64,000 nucleotides of DNA, taken from positions 432 through 64,431 of the forward strand of contig CAVRGN010000006.1 in NCBI GenBank assembly GCA_963720725.1, read 5' to 3'. The DNA comes from an uncultured Alphaproteobacteria bacterium. GTDB taxonomy: Bacteria > Pseudomonadota > Alphaproteobacteria > Geminicoccales > Geminicoccaceae. Below, one piece after another: positions 3,185 through 64,000 of the stretch. The translations under genes and the position numbers were made by a program. Every line of letters starts with the position of its first letter. Positions within the stretch are counted from its first letter, which is position 1. The notes below the pieces were generated by a model, which saw only the letters and a program-made list of their open reading frames with translations, searched no databases and was not told the DNA's origin.

Positions 3185-6751
<3,567 letters not shown>

Positions 6752-57764: not shown

Positions 57765-58103
57765 TCAGAGGGGGACGGCGGGAGAGCGCCACTGACCTTC
57801 CGTGCTACGGCAGGCTGTCGCCTGGGATACCGATCCGCTCCCGTCCACATGGCGTGTCGTGACCTGGTAGTCCCTGCAGAAGAGCGCGGCGTTCTTGAAG
57901 GTGCGGAGCGGCGTGATCGTGCCAGACAGGCCGCCTGCCGCATCGTTCCAGGCGACGAGTTCCCCGCTCGGGGTGGTGGTGAGCGTGTATTGAACCACCA
58001 CGTCCGGGACGGCGGTCCCGGACGTGGTCACGTCGCCGCCTCGGGTGGCGCAGGCGGTCAGCATGACGATCCAACCGACGGCCACGATCGCCCTGGGGCT
58101 CAT
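57765..58103 (-). CDS. Lipoprotein with 17 kDa surface-antigen-like (RT0821/Lpp0805-type) domain
   Basis: Lipobox LTAC; SG..VAW, GTITPLRTF, CRDY, ACR..GQW. Confidence 0.78.
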   Translation of the reverse strand: MSPRAIVAVGWIVMLTACATRGGDVTTSGTAVPDVVVQYTLTTTPSGELVAWNDAAGGLSGTITPLRTFKNAALFCRDYQVTTRHVDGSGSVSQATACRSTEGQWRSPAVPL

Positions 58104-59003
58104 TGCCAGCCACCTCGGATCAACGCGGCTTCCTGTTCCGGCGACAGGTCCCCGCTCACCTGATGCGGCGCGCGGGCAGTGGCCGGGTTGGCGCCGCCGT
58201 GAGGTTTGGTGACGGTGACGCCATGCTCCACCTCGACCTCGAGCCGACCTTGACGATCGACGGTCACCTGCCGTGCCGGCTGGCCCGCGACCTCCACGGC
58301 TCGAACACCCGTGACGGCACCTGGCTGCCGGACCGCATCCTCGCCGTGGGGCTTGACCGTCACGGTGCGTACGCCGTGCTCGATTTCCACCTCGACCTCG
58401 AGCACGCGGCCGAGGTCGTCCACCAGAACGCGGTCGCCGCTCAAGACACCATCGATGTCGCGATCGCGGAGCTCGACTTCTGCGCGACCTTGACGGCGAC
58501 CGGAATCGTCGGTGCCGCTGCGACCGGTGCCGGACCTTTCGCCATCGTCGCTGCGATCGCCCGATCCGGAGCTGCCACCATCATCGCTGCCGCTGCGGCC
58601 CGATCCGGAGCTGCCGCCATCATCGCTGCCGCTGCGGCCCGAGCCGGAGCTGCCGCCGTCATCGCTGCCACCGCCCGAACCGGACCCGCCACCATCGTCG
58701 CTGCCGCCGCCGGAGCCGGAACTGCCGCCGTCGTCACTGCCGCCGCCAGAGTCGAGAGCCGCCGCCATCGTCGCTGCCGCCGCCGGAGTGAGAGCCGCCG
58801 CCGTCACCTCCGCGACCCGAGCCGCCGCCGTCGCCGCCACGACCCGACCCGCCGCCCTTGCCGCTGTCCGCCAGCGCGGTGGACCAAGCCATGGCAAGGC
58901 CATTCTTGTCGGTTGGCACGAACTTGACGGGCACTGTGACGGCACTGGCAGCCAGCAATGCCATGATTCCAACCTGTGCCATCAGGGCGCTGCGCATCTT
59001 CAT
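58100..59003 (-). CDS. Secreted Gly/Ser/Asp-repeat protein, frameshift near 58753
   Basis: ATG 59003 with GGAGAG upstream and a signal ending ALA; repeat unit TCTCACTCC becomes TCTCGACTCT (+1), switching to the frame of track ORF 58100-58972. Confidence 0.75.
58500..58860 (-). repeat. Coding tandem repeat (GGSDDG, 36-39 nt period)
   Basis: Seven SDDG units plus one TDDS, preceded by two GGSGRGGDG units. Confidence 0.9.
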
Positions 59004-59158
59004 GATAACTCTCCGCTCGGCCTGTCGCGGCAGCGTGAGCGCCGCCATGCCGAGACAACCCTTGGCGGCCGAATTTCCTTCCGCGCCCGTCGTAGAAGAA
59101 TTTTTAAAAGATGCCGGACGAAAGTCTGTCGAGAGGTGTTTTCGAGCAGAGCGATTAC

Positions 59159-59707
59159 ATGAGCGCTGCGGCAGACCATGATATGGCCAGAACGGCAGAT
59201 GACGAGGTTCGCGAGCAGATGGTGGCGTTGATGCCGCGGCTGAGGCGCTTCGCGCTGCTGCTCACGGCGTCCCGCGCCGACGCGGACGACCTCGTCCAGG
59301 CGGCCCTGGAGCGCGCCATCCAGCGGCTCGATCTGTGGCAGCGGGGCACGGCGCTCGACCGCTGGCTGTTCAAGGTCGCGCACAATCTGCATCGCAACCA
59401 GCGTCGCGACTTTGCGACCCGTCTGCGGCTGGTCCAGCGGCACGGGGAGACCATGGACTTCGCGGAGGACGGCGCAAGACGGGCGGAAGCTGCGACGGAG
59501 TTGGCCGAGGTGCGCCAGCGCATGCTCGCGCTGCCAGAGGAACAACGGTCCGTGCTGACGCTGATCGCCATCGAGGGCTTCTCCTACCAGGAGGCAGCTG
59601 ATTTGCTGGAACTGCCGATCGGCACCGTCACGAGCCGTCTAGGTCGCGCCCGCGATGCTCTGCGGGCCGCCCTGGCGGGCCACGACAAGCAGTTGGAGTC
59701 GGCATGA
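59159..59707 (+). CDS. ECF RNA polymerase sigma factor
   Basis: PRLRRFA, DADDLVQ, WLFKVAHN, FSYQEAADLLELPIGTVTSRLGRAR; start 59159 or 59111. Confidence 0.95.
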   Translation: MSAAADHDMARTADDEVREQMVALMPRLRRFALLLTASRADADDLVQAALERAIQRLDLWQRGTALDRWLFKVAHNLHRNQRRDFATRLRLVQRHGETMDFAEDGARRAEAATELAEVRQRMLALPEEQRSVLTLIAIEGFSYQEAADLLELPIGTVTSRLGRARDALRAALAGHDKQLESA

Positions 59708-60327
59708 TGGATGACGAGCGCAAGGTCGTGCTCATGTGCATGGTGGATGGCGAAGTCGATCGATCCGACGCCGCTGCGCTGGCCCGAGGCAGGCAGCTGT
59801 CGACGGAAGATTGCGAATATGTCGCAATGCTGGTGGCCGAGCGGGCGCTGCTCAAGGCGGCGTTTCCGGTCGAGCGATCGGCCAGTGCCGCGGACCAGCG
59901 CATGCTCGACCGAGCGGTCGCGAGAAGGCCCCGGACCCGAATTTCCTGGCGCATCGCCGCCCCTCTCGCCGCCTCGATCCTGGCCATCGCGGTGATGGCA
60001 GGTGGAACGGTGCTGCTGGCCGAGCACCGCGCGGAGCAGACCGCTGCCCGGCTGTTCGCCTCGTTCGCCGACGACCAGAAGCTGCGGCTCGCAGCGTTCG
60101 CCGAGGCACTCGATCGGACCATCTCCGGGCAGAGCGTTGCCTGGCGCAACTCCGAAAGCGGCAGCCGTGGCACGGTCACGCCGCTGCGGACCTTCCAGGC
60201 GGCCGATGGCCGCTGGTGCCGGGAGTATCGCCAGCAATTGCAGGTTCCAGGCGGGGACGAGCAAATGACCGGCATTGCCTGCCGCGAGGACGGTGGCTGG
60301 CTGCCGATGGGTCCGCAAGAGTCTTAG
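59704..60327 (+). CDS. Anti-sigma factor with periplasmic surface-antigen-like domain
   Basis: N-terminal LMCMVDGEV, a TM helix, then SGQSVAWRN..SRGTVTPLRTF...WCREY...ACR.DGGW; overlaps the sigma stop. Confidence 0.8.
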   Translation: MMDDERKVVLMCMVDGEVDRSDAAALARGRQLSTEDCEYVAMLVAERALLKAAFPVERSASAADQRMLDRAVARRPRTRISWRIAAPLAASILAIAVMAGGTVLLAEHRAEQTAARLFASFADDQKLRLAAFAEALDRTISGQSVAWRNSESGSRGTVTPLRTFQAADGRWCREYRQQLQVPGGDEQMTGIACREDGGWLPMGPQES

Positions 60328-60635: not shown

Positions 60636-62126
60636 CTATTCCGCCCGCGACGGCCGTAGCCGGATTCGCTGCCGCAGCGGTCCCGCTGCGATTCGCCGAG
60701 CGGACCGGAGCCAATGGCGCACCTCACCGGCCAAGGGATGCTCCAGCGTCAGGATCGCGCCGAGCCAGCCCGCGACGGCCGCAAGGCCAGCCAGCGCCGC
60801 GATGGGCAGGCTCGCCTGCAGGACGGACCCGGCTGCCGCGAGGACCGTGGCGGCCGGGGCGGCGGCGCAGGCGGTGGCGATGGCGCCCGGCCGGATCGCG
60901 GCCAGCAGCTGGCGCCAGGTGAAGCCGGTGGCGCGGCGCACGAAGCGCAGCGCCACCGCCATCTGCAGAGCGGCGCAGGTGGAGATCGCCGCGGCCGTGG
61001 CGTCGACGCCCCACATCGCGGCGACCCCGACGATGAGGAGCGAGGGTGGCAGGGAAATCAGGCTGGCGGTGAGGGTGTCGCGCACCCGGCCCACCGCGAC
61101 CAGGGTCGGGAAGGTGAGGAACCCGGCGAACAGGAACAGATAGCCGACGGTCAGGATGCGGATGACCCGCGCCGCCTCGGTCCATTGCGCGCCGAGCACC
61201 ACGTCGACGATGGGCTCGGCGAGCAGGAAGACGCCGACCAGGAACGGCCATTGGACCGTGACCCCGAGGTCGACCCCGCGCAGATAGACGGAACGCACTT
61301 CGCCGTCGCCGCGCGCGCGGCGGGCCAGCGCCGGCAGCAGCACGGGGCTCAGCACGCTGACGACGAGCCGATCCTGCAGCTGGCACAAGGTGGCGGCCCG
61401 GTTGAACAGACCTGTCGCGTCCAACCCCACGAACCGGCCGAGGGCGAGCTGCGGCAGCATGGTGTAGAGCATGTTCAGCAGGTTGGTGGCGCTGGCCGTG
61501 CCGCCGAACGCCACCACCTCGCGCCAGCCCGCCAGATTGGGTCGGAAGATCCAGGCGCCCGGCCCCAGCATCGTGACCGCGACGGCGCTGCCCAGCTGGT
61601 AGGCGACCATCGCCAGGACGAGACTGAGATAGCCCTGGCCGAGCAGACCCAGGGCGAGCGCGGTGGTCAGTTGCGCCAGCGACCCGGTCAGGTTGACCAG
61701 CGCCACCCGTCCGAACTGCATCTCGCGGCGGAGCAGGCCGAGGCCGGGGCCGCTGAACGGCACCAGGACGAAGCCGATGCTGGTCAGGGACAATGCGGTG
61801 AACAGCCGGTGGTCGCCGTAAAATCTCGCCACCGCCGGCGCGAGCGCCATGACCGCCGCGGCCATGGCCAGGGACAGGAGCAAGCCCACGGTGAAGGCGG
61901 TGCGGATCCGCCCGGCATCCAGCGTCCGCGCCTGGACGAGAAACGCTCCGACACCGAACTCCCGCAGCAATTCGGCCAGCGCCACCAACGCCACCGTCAC
62001 CCCGAAGATACCGAACTCCTCCGGCGTGACGAGCCGTGCCAGCACCGCGGTGATGACCAGGTTGACGAGAATCGCGGCGTAGCGGTCGCACAGCGAGAAC
62101 AGCACCGAACGGCGAAAGCTTGGCAT
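60636..62126 (-). CDS. Polysaccharide flippase (Wzx/PST family)
   Basis: LARLVTPEEFGIFG, LLRREMQF, GLFNRA, GAQWTEAA; about 12 TM helices. Confidence 0.9.
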   Translation of the reverse strand: MPSFRRSVLFSLCDRYAAILVNLVITAVLARLVTPEEFGIFGVTVALVALAELLREFGVGAFLVQARTLDAGRIRTAFTVGLLLSLAMAAAVMALAPAVARFYGDHRLFTALSLTSIGFVLVPFSGPGLGLLRREMQFGRVALVNLTGSLAQLTTALALGLLGQGYLSLVLAMVAYQLGSAVAVTMLGPGAWIFRPNLAGWREVVAFGGTASATNLLNMLYTMLPQLALGRFVGLDATGLFNRAATLCQLQDRLVVSVLSPVLLPALARRARGDGEVRSVYLRGVDLGVTVQWPFLVGVFLLAEPIVDVVLGAQWTEAARVIRILTVGYLFLFAGFLTFPTLVAVGRVRDTLTASLISLPPSLLIVGVAAMWGVDATAAAISTCAALQMAVALRFVRRATGFTWRQLLAAIRPGAIATACAAAPAATVLAAAGSVLQASLPIAALAGLAAVAGWLGAILTLEHPLAGEVRHWLRSARRIAAGPLRQRIRLRPSRAE

Positions 62127-62676
62127 CGGGCTGTCCCCTGCGGTGCCTTGACCAGGCGCGGCCGCGCTCGGCGGAAGCCAAGGCGGCGGGCACCACCGGC
62201 AACCTAGGACCCGGCCTCATCTGGCGCGATTACTACTAACGGCGCGCAAGCCTGCCCCAGGGCGCCCGGAACCTGCCTATCACGGGAACGATGGCCAAGC
62301 GGACGGCCCGCACGGCGATCGAGGGCCCATCATGGTAAGTGGCTGTACCCATTGGGTGTCGCGGAATATCCGAAAGGCGTACGGCGTCAGCCTTACGGCC
62401 ATAGCGGCCCGGCCTCCCTGAAACGCAACGCCGAACGTGGCTCCGCCGTAGAAGGACAATCCCCGCAGGCGATATATTCCACATAATTTCGCCTTGAACG
62501 TGTGCAGCATGGATTGTAGGTTTTCCATTAGGCCTGCACAGTAACAGGGCCCAGCGCATTGCGGTCATTCAGCAACCGCAGGTAATGCCGTGCGCCTGTC
62601 ACCCCGCCATGCTGCCGCGTGGTGACGCGTTCCTCTGCTCTCGGCGGAGCTCGTTTCCTTCAGCGGGGAACAGTTG

Positions 62677-64000
62677 ATGATGGAAACCTACCAATCCGAC
62701 CGCGCGTCGGATCGGATGCGGTCACGCGCGCCGGGCCCGGGCCCATTCGGCGCCGCGTGCAGACGGAGCCAGTGGCGGACTGCCACCGGCGTCGCCGCCC
62801 GGTTGGCAGCGCTGCTGCTGATCGGCGGCCCGGCCCTGGCCGTGGCACCCGTCGAGGCGGCCCAATCGCTCTGGTCCAATTCCGACGTACCGGCCACGCT
62901 GGCCGACAGCGACACGGCGGCGGTGGAATTGGGCGTCAAGTTCAGCAGTTCGGTCGCCGGCTCGGTCACTGGCGTCAGATTCTACAAGGGGCCTAGCAAT
63001 CGCGGCACCCACACGGGTAGCTTGTGGACCGCAAGTGGCACGAGACTTGCGCGAGGAACTTTCGTGAACGAGACTGCCTCTGGATGGCAGACCCTGATGT
63101 TCGCGGCCCCGGTGGTGATCGCCGCGAACACGACCTACGTCGCCTCGTACTACGCGCCGCAGGGGCGCTACGCCTTCACCAACGGCTACTTCGCGAGCGC
63201 GCGCACCAATGGCGTGCTGACCGCCCCGGCCAATGGCGGCGCTGGCAACGGGGTCTATCGCTACGGCAGGTCCGGCTTTCCCAGGCAGAGCTATCAGGCC
63301 TCGAATTACTGGATCGATGTCCTGGTCGAGGCCGGCTCGACGGCTCCACCTCCGCCACCGCCGCCAGCACCAGCACCAGTCGCTACCGGCGGCCCTCCCG
63401 CGGGCTACACGCTGGCGTGGAGCGACGAGTTCAACAGTCTGAGCCTCGGCGGTCCCGCGAGCGGCAAGAACTGGGCGCCGTACTTCACGGGATGGAACGT
63501 TCGTTACCTTGCGGGCAACAGCGATGACGCGGTGAAGGCCGGCGACTACGAGCAGTTGGTGAACGGCCGCAGCACGGCCGGCGACGCGCTGAGCCAGACC
63601 GGTCTCTGGGGATCGCGATCGGGCTACCTGCACGAGATCATGGGCGGGCAGCTCGCTCTGCGCGGCTACCCGGTGCCGAGCGGGCAGCAGTCGGCCTTCT
63701 GGGGCAAACCCTATGTCGCCAGCATGATCAGCGGCCAACCGAGCTTCTCACAGCGCTACGGTTATTGGGAGGTGCGACTGCGCCTGACCAACGTCAGCCA
63801 GGGACATCACTTCGCCGTCTGGCTCATGCCTACCGACAATTCCTGGCCGCCGGAGATCGACATGCTCGAGGTGGTCGGCTTGGATCCGAGCAAGTACCAC
63901 ATGACCTCGCACGGCTCCTCGAATGACCAGCTCGTCTGGTTTCACCCGAGCGATCCGACCGGCTGGCATACGCTCGGCTTTCTTTGGACGCCGGACAGGA
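62677..64000 (+). CDS. Secreted DUF4082 + Pro-linker + GH16 glycoside hydrolase, truncated by window end
   Basis: Open frame from ATG 62677 to 64000: VELGVKF..GVRFYKG..NETASGWQ..ASNYWIDV; PPPPPPPAPAP; WSDEFN, YGYWEVR, WPPEIDMLE (63853-63870). Confidence 0.88.
   Translation, partial: MMETYQSDRASDRMRSRAPGPGPFGAACRRSQWRTATGVAARLAALLLIGGPALAVAPVEAAQSLWSNSDVPATLADSDTAAVELGVKFSSSVAGSVTGVRFYKGPSNRGTHTGSLWTASGTRLARGTFVNETASGWQTLMFAAPVVIAANTTYVASYYAPQGRYAFTNGYFASARTNGVLTAPANGGAGNGVYRYGRSGFPRQSYQASNYWIDVLVEAGSTAPPPPPPPAPAPVATGGPPAGYTLAWSDEFNSLSLGGPASGKNWAPYFTGWNVRYLAGNSDDAVKAGDYEQLVNGRSTAGDALSQTGLWGSRSGYLHEIMGGQLALRGYPVPSGQQSAFWGKPYVASMISGQPSFSQRYGYWEVRLRLTNVSQGHHFAVWLMPTDNSWPPEIDMLEVVGLDPSKYHMTSHGSSNDQLVWFHPSDPTGWHTLGFLWTPDR

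Follow-up and report, generated by a model that had tools for sequence, protein, structure and literature searches.

We describe a four-gene envelope-signalling unit that recurs across many Alphaproteobacteria and comprises an ECF sigma factor, an anti-sigma factor that acts as a sensor in the membrane, a separate protein carrying the same sensor domain, and an acidic secreted protein whose short tail is conserved. The version described here lies in a 64,000-nucleotide stretch of DNA (the window) from an uncultured member of the Geminicoccaceae, in which the secreted protein and a lipoprotein are transcribed divergently from the sigma gene (Table 1). Based on the pattern of conservation detailed below, we propose that the secreted tail is probably the ligand of the anti-sigma sensor. 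The first-pass annotation had interpreted the locus as a compact circuit in which the ECF sigma factor induces a ligand or partner (the repeat protein) and a decoy or co-receptor (the lipoprotein) that feed back on the anti-sigma factor, and this interpretation as a whole is partly supported by our results. We found no published description of the module in the literature on PF16998, 17 kDa surface antigens and Hint domains associated with ECF or anti-sigma factors, and the main text of the ECF classification paper does not mention an anti-sigma factor with a PF16998 domain.

Table 1. Features of the locus, with positions in the window
Feature	Position	Strand	Remarks
Lipoprotein, 112 aa	57765..58103	-	Signal peptide, lipobox LTAC (Cys18), then PF16998 domain with two conserved cysteines
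C-terminal motif of secreted protein	58103..58165	-	HQVSGDLSPEQEAALIRGGWQ; profile match 74.9 bits; predicted short helix
Lineage-specific folded part	58166..58522	-	Small module of alpha/beta type, plus a pair of (L/I)EVEVEHGVxxTKPHG elements
Acidic Gly/Ser/Asp low-complexity repeats (GSDDGG)	58523..58868	-	Include an apparent frameshift
N-terminal signal region	58869..59003	-	MKMRSALMAQVGIMALLAAS...STALA / DSG (slash, predicted cleavage); likely ATG 59003, GGAGAG upstream
ECF-type promoter-like site	59053..59082	-	GGAAGGAA-N11-AAGGGTTGTCT; faces secreted-protein/lipoprotein operon
ECF-type promoter-like site	59116..59144	+	GGACGAAA-N10-AGGTGTTTTCG; faces sigma gene
ECF sigma factor	59183..59707	+	Sigma-2 and sigma-4 domains; ATG 59183 likely, as a longer ORF from 59111 would include its own promoter; the L039 orthologue begins MASTADDE
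Anti-sigma factor, 207 aa	59704..60327	+	Start overlaps sigma stop

The sigma factor and a shared two-cysteine domain

The sigma factor matches profiles for the sigma-2 (PF04542/PF22029; Sigma70_r2) and sigma-4 (PF08281/PF04545; r4_2) domains, all above their cut-offs, as well as TIGR02937 sigma70-ECF (69 bits, cut-off 42.9), and its possession of these two domains only, within about 170-200 residues, is typical of ECF (group 4) sigma factors; of the NCBIfam models, PRK12511 comes closest, at 118.6 bits against a cut-off of 185. The product encoded immediately downstream has the organization of a class I anti-sigma factor, with a helical N-terminal anti-sigma domain (ASD; residues ~1-55) and a single TM helix (~82-106), followed in the periplasm by a helix and then by PF16998 (~122-203; 38.6 bits, E 1.1e-9, gathering score 26.6), which contains Cys172 and Cys193. 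An AF2 model of this protein displays helices over residues 4-53, a long TM helix, and a pLDDT above 92 for residues 121-200. As a fold search initiated with the model recovered nothing below E 0.1, and only weak similarity to NTF2/SnoaL-like sheets, we assign it to no fold family. The ASD shares an LxxxxDGE...LLRAAF block with relatives that match PF13490 zf-HC2 (P0028-P0031); however, profile searches and the alignment reveal neither a PF13490 match nor an HxxxCxxC zinc motif in the window's protein, and we accordingly regard it as a non-zinc ASD variant.

The lipobox of the lipoprotein, MSPRAIVAVGWIVMLTAC, was read by eye and fits the pattern [LVI][ASTVI][GAS]C; the remainder of the protein matches PF16998 with 34.4 bits (E 2.1e-8), again above the gathering score. 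BLASTP aligns it to the anti-sigma factor with 27/66 identities (41%; E 4e-11) over a region spanning both cysteines and the GT(V/I)TPLRTF block, and the two cysteines are invariant in 27 homologues. Thus the two-cysteine domain that the first-pass annotation had noted in both proteins is confirmed, and these alignments make the lipoprotein and the sensor domain of the anti-sigma factor paralogues. The suggestion of a duplication also holds as far as paralogy is concerned, but not as a local event: in a tree of the domain the lipoprotein and anti-sigma versions form two mostly separate halves with matching branching within the family, indicating that the duplication is old rather than local. 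A search of solved structures with the lipoprotein sequence yielded nothing below E 0.3.

Beyond this unit, stand-alone PF16998 proteins are present in 253 of the 401 genomes of the class and fall in 12,104 clusters, mostly without a sigma factor nearby, while the domain serves as an anti-sigma sensor in about 220 clusters at E<=1e-30. The former, the RT0821/Lpp0805-type surface proteins of NCBI, are the '17 kDa surface antigen' proteins; they share this domain and both its cysteines, and the lipoprotein of the window looks like a typical member. That family has no assigned function, whereas here the domain serves an anti-sigma factor and is paired with a tail-motif protein, two uses that we did not encounter in the literature searched.

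The secreted protein and its C-terminal motif

The lipoprotein start codon overlaps the stop codon of the secreted-protein gene in a 4-base ATGA (TGA 58100-58102; ATG 58101-58103), as expected from the translational coupling noted in the first pass. The same annotation had pointed to the GSDDG-repeat protein as the partner in the circuit; the gene is indeed present, but its conserved part is not the repeats, which like the His-containing modules are lineage-specific. The sole segment conserved across the family is a tail motif of roughly 20 residues, QVGxDL(S/T)xxEExxxIxxGW(Q/R), that lies 1-5 residues from the C-terminus or, in L057, internally. In this genome the strict pattern occurs once, at this locus, and the motif profile detects one further, weaker copy beside a second sigma/anti-sigma locus. 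Word-based protein searches with the tail region, which is too short for that method, recovered only four near relatives, and six-frame profile searches of genomes found tails more effectively.

The signal region of the protein is supported by alignment with the N-termini of L039, L040 and L020. A model of its C-terminal part has a pLDDT of 57 overall and of about 75 over residues 10-78, with a low-confidence helix at residues 128-136; a fold search with this low-confidence model returned nothing below E 0.5, and the folded part upstream of the tail has no Pfam or PDB fold match. We considered whether the EVEVEHG modules might be PepSY-like, and dropped the idea for want of profile or fold support.

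The repeat gene does not form a single intact ORF in the window: the signal peptide and the remainder of the protein (58100-58972) are read in different frames, apparently because of a +1 frameshift within the repeats, near 58745-58760 (GGCTCTCGACTCTGGC). As the partner gene is frameshifted here, the circuit may be broken in this genome, and the split between the signal peptide and the rest of the gene could indicate a true pseudogene in a decayed locus, with the module non-functional or reduced to the sigma factor, the anti-sigma factor and the lipoprotein. We consider such decay unlikely: the orthologue in a close relative (L039) is intact, with 259 residues, and over the last 130 residues it hardly differs from the window's protein, which argues against any further decay. 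Furthermore, two such genes (L019 and L034) of the few-contig relative G006 are interrupted by the same kind of break, pointing to assembly indels. Given the intact gene in the close relative, the frameshift is probably an assembly error.

In many loci (L037, L029-31, L034, L043, L045, L047, L062 and L064) a Hint (intein-like) self-cleaving domain immediately follows the signal peptide and precedes the tail. Among these is the second locus in this genome (L037, contig C13), whose partner is paralogous to the secreted protein of the window; the Hint match (PF05203, 36.6 bits against a cut-off of 32.1) is found in it and in many orthologous partners, and a profile search found no such match in the window's own secreted protein. 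The Hint-type partners have a mature start of the form Cys-Phe-x-x-G-T and a domain end of His-Asn followed by a non-nucleophilic Lys, an arrangement that would be expected for cleavage without splicing. BIL/Hint and 'pre-toxin' modules release a C-terminal cargo by self-cleavage, and relatives of the partner have matching blocks; however, unlike in BIL/Hint modules, the predicted cargo here is an acidic linker with the 20-residue motif rather than a toxin or an enzyme.

A further clue is a natural fusion, L059, in which a single protein combines an anti-sigma factor, PF16998, a linker and the motif (LSASEEARLLRNRWQE). It is a single protein from a MAG and matches the motif only weakly (E 3e-3 in a search of the ORFs from the retrieved loci, Z=1000), and a word-based protein search for a second example of this type returned only itself.

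Conservation of the unit and its promoters

Consistent with the co-occurrence that the first-pass annotation had predicted, synteny is kept within the same genus and family, and the four-gene layout is seen in at least 15 alphaproteobacterial families. Representatives from other families of the class and from metagenomes include L041, L043, L044, L045, L052-L055, L057, L058 and L062-L065. A motif-bearing gene adjoins 29 of the 33 informative loci with a sigma factor and a PF16998-containing anti-sigma factor, a figure inflated by the selection of part of the loci via the motif search itself, though about 15 of 18 still do so in the set chosen by the anti-sigma factor only; the partners of L029-L031, L034 and L054 were recognized with a looser motif pattern. 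Loci of subfamily B comprise the sigma factor, the anti-sigma factor and the motif protein without a lipoprotein, and at L028 and L047 pairs of motif and PF16998 proteins lie away from any sigma gene. Several lineages (L062, L064) possess a free PF16998 protein without a lipobox, which would be soluble, and five Hint-type loci have no free PF16998 protein at all. Consequently, a decoy role cannot be general, and the lipoprotein, which was proposed in the first pass as part of the circuit and is present here, is better viewed as an optional member.

The two promoter-like sites lying back to back between the operons share the motif GGAAGaa-N~11-cGkGTTgt, which recurs in distant families. The first-pass annotation had placed a candidate promoter on the minus strand near 59053-59078; the place is correct and the register slightly off, the conserved element running from 59082 to 59053. 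This site scores 22.5 bits and ranks 2-3 genome-wide in a scan of 9.5 Mb that yielded only 16 sites above 17 bits. The other sites of the scan (the best at contig C13:705657) have no obviously related downstream gene, and we therefore claim no wider regulon. Paired divergent motifs are present in the 8 training loci, and out-of-sample matches on both strands were recovered in L039, L040, L041, L043 and L044; upstream of the sigma gene, sequence matches to GGA(A/C)GAA-N10-11-(C/G)G(G/T)GT(T/A) are found in 13 loci, the elements usual for ECF-type promoters being GGAAC-like at -35 and CGT-like at -10. The same matrix did not detect the motif in L027, L045 and L052, and subfamily B displays only a related element, GGATAAAG-N14-CGCGTTATGC. 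As matching motifs face both operons, and do so also in distant families, these predicted sites support control of the divergent operon by the ECF sigma factor.

This evidence supports sigma control and is silent on feedback. The divergent operon might be purely an output, a sigma regulon whose acidic periplasmic protein and lipoprotein serve envelope repair or modification, with the PF16998 domains sharing an envelope ligand (peptidoglycan, a lipid or a cation-dependent feature) instead of the tail. The wide distribution of stand-alone PF16998 proteins away from sigma factors is in keeping with this, as is the 9- to 17-fold induction by NaCl of two '17 kDa surface antigen' genes in Sphingomonas wittichii (PMC3238334). 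Nevertheless, we judge it rather unlikely that the operon is output only, because the tail motif follows the PF16998-containing anti-sigma factors much more closely than one would expect of a mere regulon member, persists where there is no free PF16998 protein, is fused once to the sensor (L059), and is the sole segment to be conserved while the rest of the protein varies freely.

A proposed self-regulated circuit and its relatives

The conservation of the C-terminal motif alone, its company with nearly every such anti-sigma factor and its single fusion to the sensor together strengthen the idea of a ligand or partner. In light of this, we favor, as somewhat better than an even prospect, a self-regulated ECF circuit in which the secreted tail binds both paralogous sensor domains. 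The sigma factor would be held at the inner membrane by the single-pass anti-sigma factor, whose periplasmic sensor is the PF16998 domain with its predicted disulfide. The back-to-back ECF-type promoter motifs face the two operons, and the divergent one encodes an acidic protein for export, which is mostly disordered and ends in the tail motif, together with the outer-membrane lipoprotein that is coupled to it in translation. The predicted C-terminal helix of the exported protein would be the ligand common to the two PF16998 domains. How far it occupies the anti-sigma sensor would depend on its own abundance or processing and on competition from the lipoprotein; sensor occupancy would then govern the release of the sigma factor, closing the feedback loop. 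From the single L059 fusion, an inhibitory or protective (auto-inhibiting) ligand fits slightly better than an activating one. An arrangement in which the lipoprotein pairs with the homologous anti-sigma domain to report envelope state (compare RseB-RseA and NlpE-CpxA), the secreted protein being a cargo or tether whose tail binds the lipoprotein only, would accord with the frequency of homotypic pairs among paralogous domains, with a 1:1 complex suggested by translational coupling and with the pairs lacking a nearby sigma gene, but is improbable given that subfamily B dispenses with the lipoprotein, that free PF16998 proteins of several lineages are predicted to be soluble and that the L059 fusion joins the motif to the anti-sigma factor rather than to the lipoprotein.

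The tail-ligand circuit resembles E. coli RpoE-RseA-RseB, where outer-membrane proteins provide C-terminal peptides that activate sigma-E via DegS, in combining an ECF sigma factor and a single-pass anti-sigma factor with a co-encoded periplasmic accessory protein predicted to be under the control of the system, putative autoregulation and a proposed short C-terminal peptide signal. It differs in that the proposed peptide has a single dedicated source, a protein encoded at the locus, instead of the bulk porins, and in that the accessory protein and the sensor domain are themselves paralogues; Pfam and NCBIfam searches of the five products found no RseA_N/RseA_C, RseB (MucB) or DegS-type/PDZ-protease domains. 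As the motif is a predicted helix that lies 1-5 residues from the end or even internally, the tail is unlikely to be a PDZ-type carboxy-terminal signal. CpxA-CpxP offers another parallel, in that a periplasmic protein that induces its own synthesis is thus proposed to exert feedback by docking on the sensor: CpxP is a periplasmic inhibitor, itself a regulon member, with LTXXQ motifs, and some tails read LTHQQ or LSPEQ, which is similar. However, Cpx is a two-component rather than an ECF system, the secreted protein has no match to CpxP/Spy PF07813 or to PepSY PF03413 at E<=1, and the resemblance may be accidental, since it concerns one short motif with which an acidic, disordered protein ends. 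In Mycobacterium, which belongs to a different phylum, the SigK-RskA pair of ECF sigma and anti-sigma factors adjoins and controls a secreted protein and a lipoprotein (mpt70/mpt83). These are paralogous to each other through the FAS1 domain, and not to the anti-sigma sensor, and no conserved tail motif is known in that system.

More tentatively, we posit as a possible elaboration a so far undescribed type of self-signalling ECF pathway, in which a dedicated exported precursor would be trimmed by signal peptidase and, in most lineages, by its own Hint domain, and the C-terminal helix of the released acidic peptide would act as the PF16998 ligand, buffered by the free paralogue, whether lipoprotein or periplasmic protein. 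Such a pathway could constitute an autocrine or cell-density signal, or a gauge of cations or ionic strength via the polyanionic linker. Few signalling systems are as abundant in bacteria as ECF sigma factors, and for most groups the actual input is unknown; if the above is true, no earlier ECF anti-sigma factor would have had a protein or peptide ligand genetically dedicated to it. The system is unusually testable, with its small sensor domain, co-encoded candidate ligand of ~20 residues, built-in competitor and, in many lineages, a self-cleaving Hint domain that would set the ligand free. Binding of the tail to PF16998 would provide a new way to gate an anti-sigma factor and a compact orthogonal set of sigma factor, anti-sigma factor and ligand for synthetic circuits. 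It would also furnish the first biochemical function for PF16998, a domain that thousands of proteins share under the name '17 kDa surface antigen', those of Rickettsia, Bartonella and Legionella among them.

A divergent four-gene unit

The unit in the window comprises four genes, two on each strand, coding for a secreted repeat protein and a lipoprotein on one side and for an ECF sigma factor, with sigma-2 and sigma-4 domains in Pfam, and an anti-sigma factor on the other. The first-pass annotation had proposed that the anti-sigma C-terminus and the lipoprotein share a two-Cys domain, and this was correct, since Pfam detects the 17kDa_Anti_2 domain (PF16998) above threshold in both (residues 32-106 of the lipoprotein and 122-198 of the anti-sigma factor) and pairwise alignment gives 41% identity over 66 residues (E 4e-11), with both cysteines common to the two. 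The translational coupling of the lipoprotein to the repeat protein, and the divergence of this pair from the sigma gene, likewise hold, the former through an ATGA overlap and the latter through an opposed orientation that is kept in relatives.

Features of the four-gene unit and of the second locus in the same genome (window positions unless another contig or locus is named)
Feature	Position	Strand	Remarks
Lipoprotein	57765-58103	minus	112 aa; lipobox LTAC; start overlaps repeat-protein stop (ATGA)
Secreted repeat protein	58100-59003	minus	
Promoter-like site facing secreted-protein operon	59082-59053	minus	GGAAGGAA...AAGGGTTGTCT
Promoter-like site facing sigma gene	59116-59144	plus	GGACGAAA...AGGTGTTTTCG
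ECF sigma factor	longest ORF from 59111; likely true start ATG 59183	plus	start as in the L039 orthologue
Anti-sigma factor	59704-60327	plus	207 aa; start overlaps sigma stop
Second-locus partner gene	L037 3615-4502 = contig C13:75614-76501	minus	found by tail profile
Second-locus sigma and anti-sigma factors	L037 about 4729-5858	plus	

The sigma factor is probably of 174 rather than 198 residues, because one promoter-like site falls inside the extension of the longest ORF (59111-59182) and the orthologue in L039, the nearest relative, begins at the equivalent of the later ATG. The anti-sigma gene is followed by genes for a multi-pass, flippase-like membrane protein (polysaccharide; Wzx/MOP type; 60636-62126, minus strand) and a glycoside hydrolase-like secreted protein (62674-63999, plus strand), both judged by eye; neither gene is conserved beside the module in L039 or in another relative, L040.

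The repeat-protein gene displays an apparent +1 frameshift: its signal peptide (MKMRSALMAQVGIMALLAAS...) and first Gly-rich repeats share one frame, which stops at 58734, and the remaining repeats and C-terminal part occupy the +1 frame (58100-58972, minus strand), with the switch falling within GGCTCTCGACTCTGGC (about 58745-58760) inside the GSDDG repeats. We consider an assembly indel the probable cause. L039 is a JGI metagenome contig; it shares the flanking two-component genes, its lipoprotein differs at 4 of 112 residues, and it carries the secreted-protein gene intact as a single 259-aa ORF with an identical C-terminus. Moreover, in a few-contig relative (G006) the partner genes of both modules are split across two frames (L019 4088-4919 and L034 5791-6725), suggesting that GC-rich repeats of this kind suffer indel errors in assemblies of few contigs, probably built from long reads. 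A real break, making the gene a pseudogene or a very recent casualty, is the less likely reading.

Variable secreted proteins with a constant tail

The anti-sigma factor, searched against 61 related genomes, has full-length relatives within its genus and family, and every one of them is accompanied by a second PF16998 match about 2 kb away on the opposite strand. Mapping all four proteins onto the fetched regions established the order of lipoprotein and secreted protein on one strand, divergent from sigma and anti-sigma factor on the other, in L001, L019, L020, L022, L023, L024, L026, L039 and L040. The secreted proteins of these genus and family loci differ greatly, being built of GSDDG repeats, Gly/Ala-rich or poly-Asp stretches, yet all begin with a signal peptide and end with the same motif of about 20 residues, QVGxDL(S/T)xxEExxxIxxGW(Q/R) (hereafter the tail; QVSGDLSPEQEAALIRGGWQ in the window, QVGGDLSPAEEAALIAGKWR and QVGPNLSPAEEAQAIADGFSQ elsewhere). 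The GSDDG repeats and duplicated EVEVEHG...KPHG elements are limited to the window's own subclade.

In a six-frame search of 401 genomes spread over the class with a 41-position tail profile, every clear match adjoins a PF16998 gene. Most adjoin a sigma/anti-sigma(PF16998) pair (L041, L043, L044, L045, L052); in two, L047 and L042 (the latter truncated at its contig end), the neighbour is a free PF16998 gene and a nearby sigma gene is lacking. The reverse search with an anti-sigma profile found the full architecture in about 17 of these genomes and the PF16998 domain alone in 253. Inspection of the anti-sigma loci revealed more divergent tails (ELSDDEESSAISNGWSG in L053, SLSVEQEQDMISKGWE in L055, SLSRSQEAASISKGWE in L058 and GPDLDSSAEAALIERGWKR in L054), and two more distant metagenomic anti-sigma relatives carry the same four genes (L062-L065), one of them also in an NCBI assembly. 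The recurrence across genomes that the first-pass annotation had named as a check is thus found within the genus and family and in other families. Altogether, the flanks are usable at 33 sigma/anti-sigma(PF16998) loci, and a tail-motif gene adjoins 29 of them. The set of 33 was partly reached through the motif itself (loci reached by the anti-sigma factor only still give about 15/18). Of the other four, L060 has an acidic secreted protein with no recognisable tail, and L006, L033 and L056 have no partner beside the pair. Among 1.84 billion cluster representatives, 222 clusters match the anti-sigma profile at E<=1e-30, nearly all of the matches listed being of 200-240 aa and aligned full length; the PF16998 domain occurs in 12,104 proteins at E<=1e-3. 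We are highly confident that the conserved module is real.

A second locus in the same genome has a tail match (24 bits) and, facing away from it, another ECF sigma/anti-sigma(PF16998) pair; there is no adjacent free PF16998 gene. The 295-aa partner comprises a signal peptide, a Hint domain (CFVAGTRVLMADG ... DGWIVHN; PF05203, 36.6 bits against a cut-off of 32.1), a linker and the related tail PLSPDQEREVIQKQWQQPN. This layout recurs in L029, L030, L031 and L034, which likewise lack a free PF16998 protein. In L043, L045, L047, L042, L062 and L064, from other families, it occurs together with acidic repeats and with a free PF16998 protein. The Hint catalytic Cys lies 2-4 residues past the predicted signal-peptidase site, and the His-Asn is followed by Lys. 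Lys is not a splicing nucleophile in established intein chemistry, and we accordingly predict that the domain would cleave instead of splicing and thereby release a linker-plus-tail fragment.

The free PF16998 protein, a lipoprotein in the window, is without a lipobox in L062 and L064. In these unrelated metagenomic copies a cytoplasmic-looking 2OG-Fe(II) oxygenase (PF13640, PKHD-type; L062 426-1100 and L064 391-1062, both minus strand), absent from the window, directly follows the free PF16998 gene. Since Hint domain, acidic repeats and free PF16998 protein vary among loci and are optional, the constant elements are the tail and the PF16998 anti-sigma factor. The tail/PF16998 pair can also exist apart from ECF genes: in one relative (G012; L028 3536-6340) two tandem tail-motif proteins (AGPDLTHQ(E/Q)ERALIA(K/E)GW) accompany a PF16998 protein with no sigma gene within 5 kb.

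The shortness of the domain leaves a tree of 65 PF16998 domains poorly resolved, but one half of it holds 26 of 30 anti-sigma domains and the other half 22 of 25 module-linked free domains, with within-family branching agreeing between the halves. The two copies are old paralogues with a shared line of descent rather than the product of a recent duplication at this locus.

Divergent promoter-like sites

Eight loci have two outward-facing sites between the operons, GGAAGaa-N10-11-(c)G(G/T)GT(T/A). The promoter earlier proposed here, GGAAAT-N16-GTCT, was rightly placed, being overlapped by the site facing the secreted-protein operon, but its exact motif gives way to this conserved form. When both strands of the 4.7-Mb genome were scanned with a matrix built from the eight loci, only 16 sites exceeded 17 bits, the two local ones ranking second and third. 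Loci outside the training set also match on both strands: L039 (23.2 and 19.7 bits), L040 (22.3 and 22.5) and, from other families, L044 (21.9 and 21.1), L041 (20.7 and 15.3) and L043 (26.4 and 14.9). The matrix finds no match in L027, L045 or L052; Hint-type loci without a free PF16998 protein have, ahead of the Hint gene, a related GGATAAAG-N14-CGCGTTATGC element. The sequences thus give good, if not conclusive, evidence for control by the sigma factor of both its own operon and the divergent one. The best match outside the locus, GGAAGAAGACCGCGAGTCGGCGTGTTCTCC (C13:705657, plus strand; 23.1 bits), precedes no recognisable reading frame and is possibly an extra regulon member.

The tail as a candidate ligand

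An AlphaFold model of the anti-sigma factor (27 homologues as input; mean pLDDT 82, >92 for residues 121-200) has a helical N-terminal anti-sigma domain, one long transmembrane/periplasmic helix (residues 82-137) and a five-stranded antiparallel sheet (residues 145-202). Foldseek against solved structures gave nothing convincing (best E 0.12, NTF2/SnoaL-like sheets), and no solved structure was found for any sequence relative of PF16998.

Gene fusion usually points to physical interaction. In a MAG labelled Alphaproteobacteria at NCBI, a single 246-aa protein (P0039; L059 92-829, plus strand) unites an anti-sigma domain, a TM helix, PF16998, a linker of about 45 residues and, at its very end, LSASEEARLLRNRWQE, which we interpret as a natural fusion of the sensor with its candidate ligand; the motif score is modest and the case single, no second such fusion having been found. 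The fusion in cis hints weakly at a tail that holds the anti-sigma factor in the inhibitory state, either by plugging it in an auto-inhibitory manner or by protecting it as RseB does; the sign could also be the reverse.

The evidence best fits an ECF circuit that regulates itself: the PF16998 sensor of the anti-sigma factor would have as its ligand the C-terminal helix of the secreted protein, and the free paralogue would compete by binding this helix too. On balance, we lean modestly towards the tail binding PF16998 domains and feeding back on the sigma factor. The circuit first envisaged is partly supported: the secreted protein as candidate ligand survives, favoured by the prevalence of the tail and by the fusion, and the ECF-type motifs facing both operons favour ECF control of the divergent one; the emphasis on the GSDDG repeats and lipoprotein shifts to the tail as the conserved part. 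In light of the polyanionic disordered linker and the reported strong salt induction of stand-alone "17 kDa surface antigen" genes in Sphingomonas wittichii (PMC3238334), ionic or cation conditions are a reasonable, if speculative, first guess for the input.

In logic the closest analogues include RpoE-RseA-RseB/DegS and CpxA-CpxP, but none of the defining domains of either occurs in the window module. Our literature search found no description of PF16998 as an anti-sigma sensor, of the tail motif or of the Hint link; the module is a candidate for a new form of ECF sigma/anti-sigma signalling, one with a dedicated candidate ligand.
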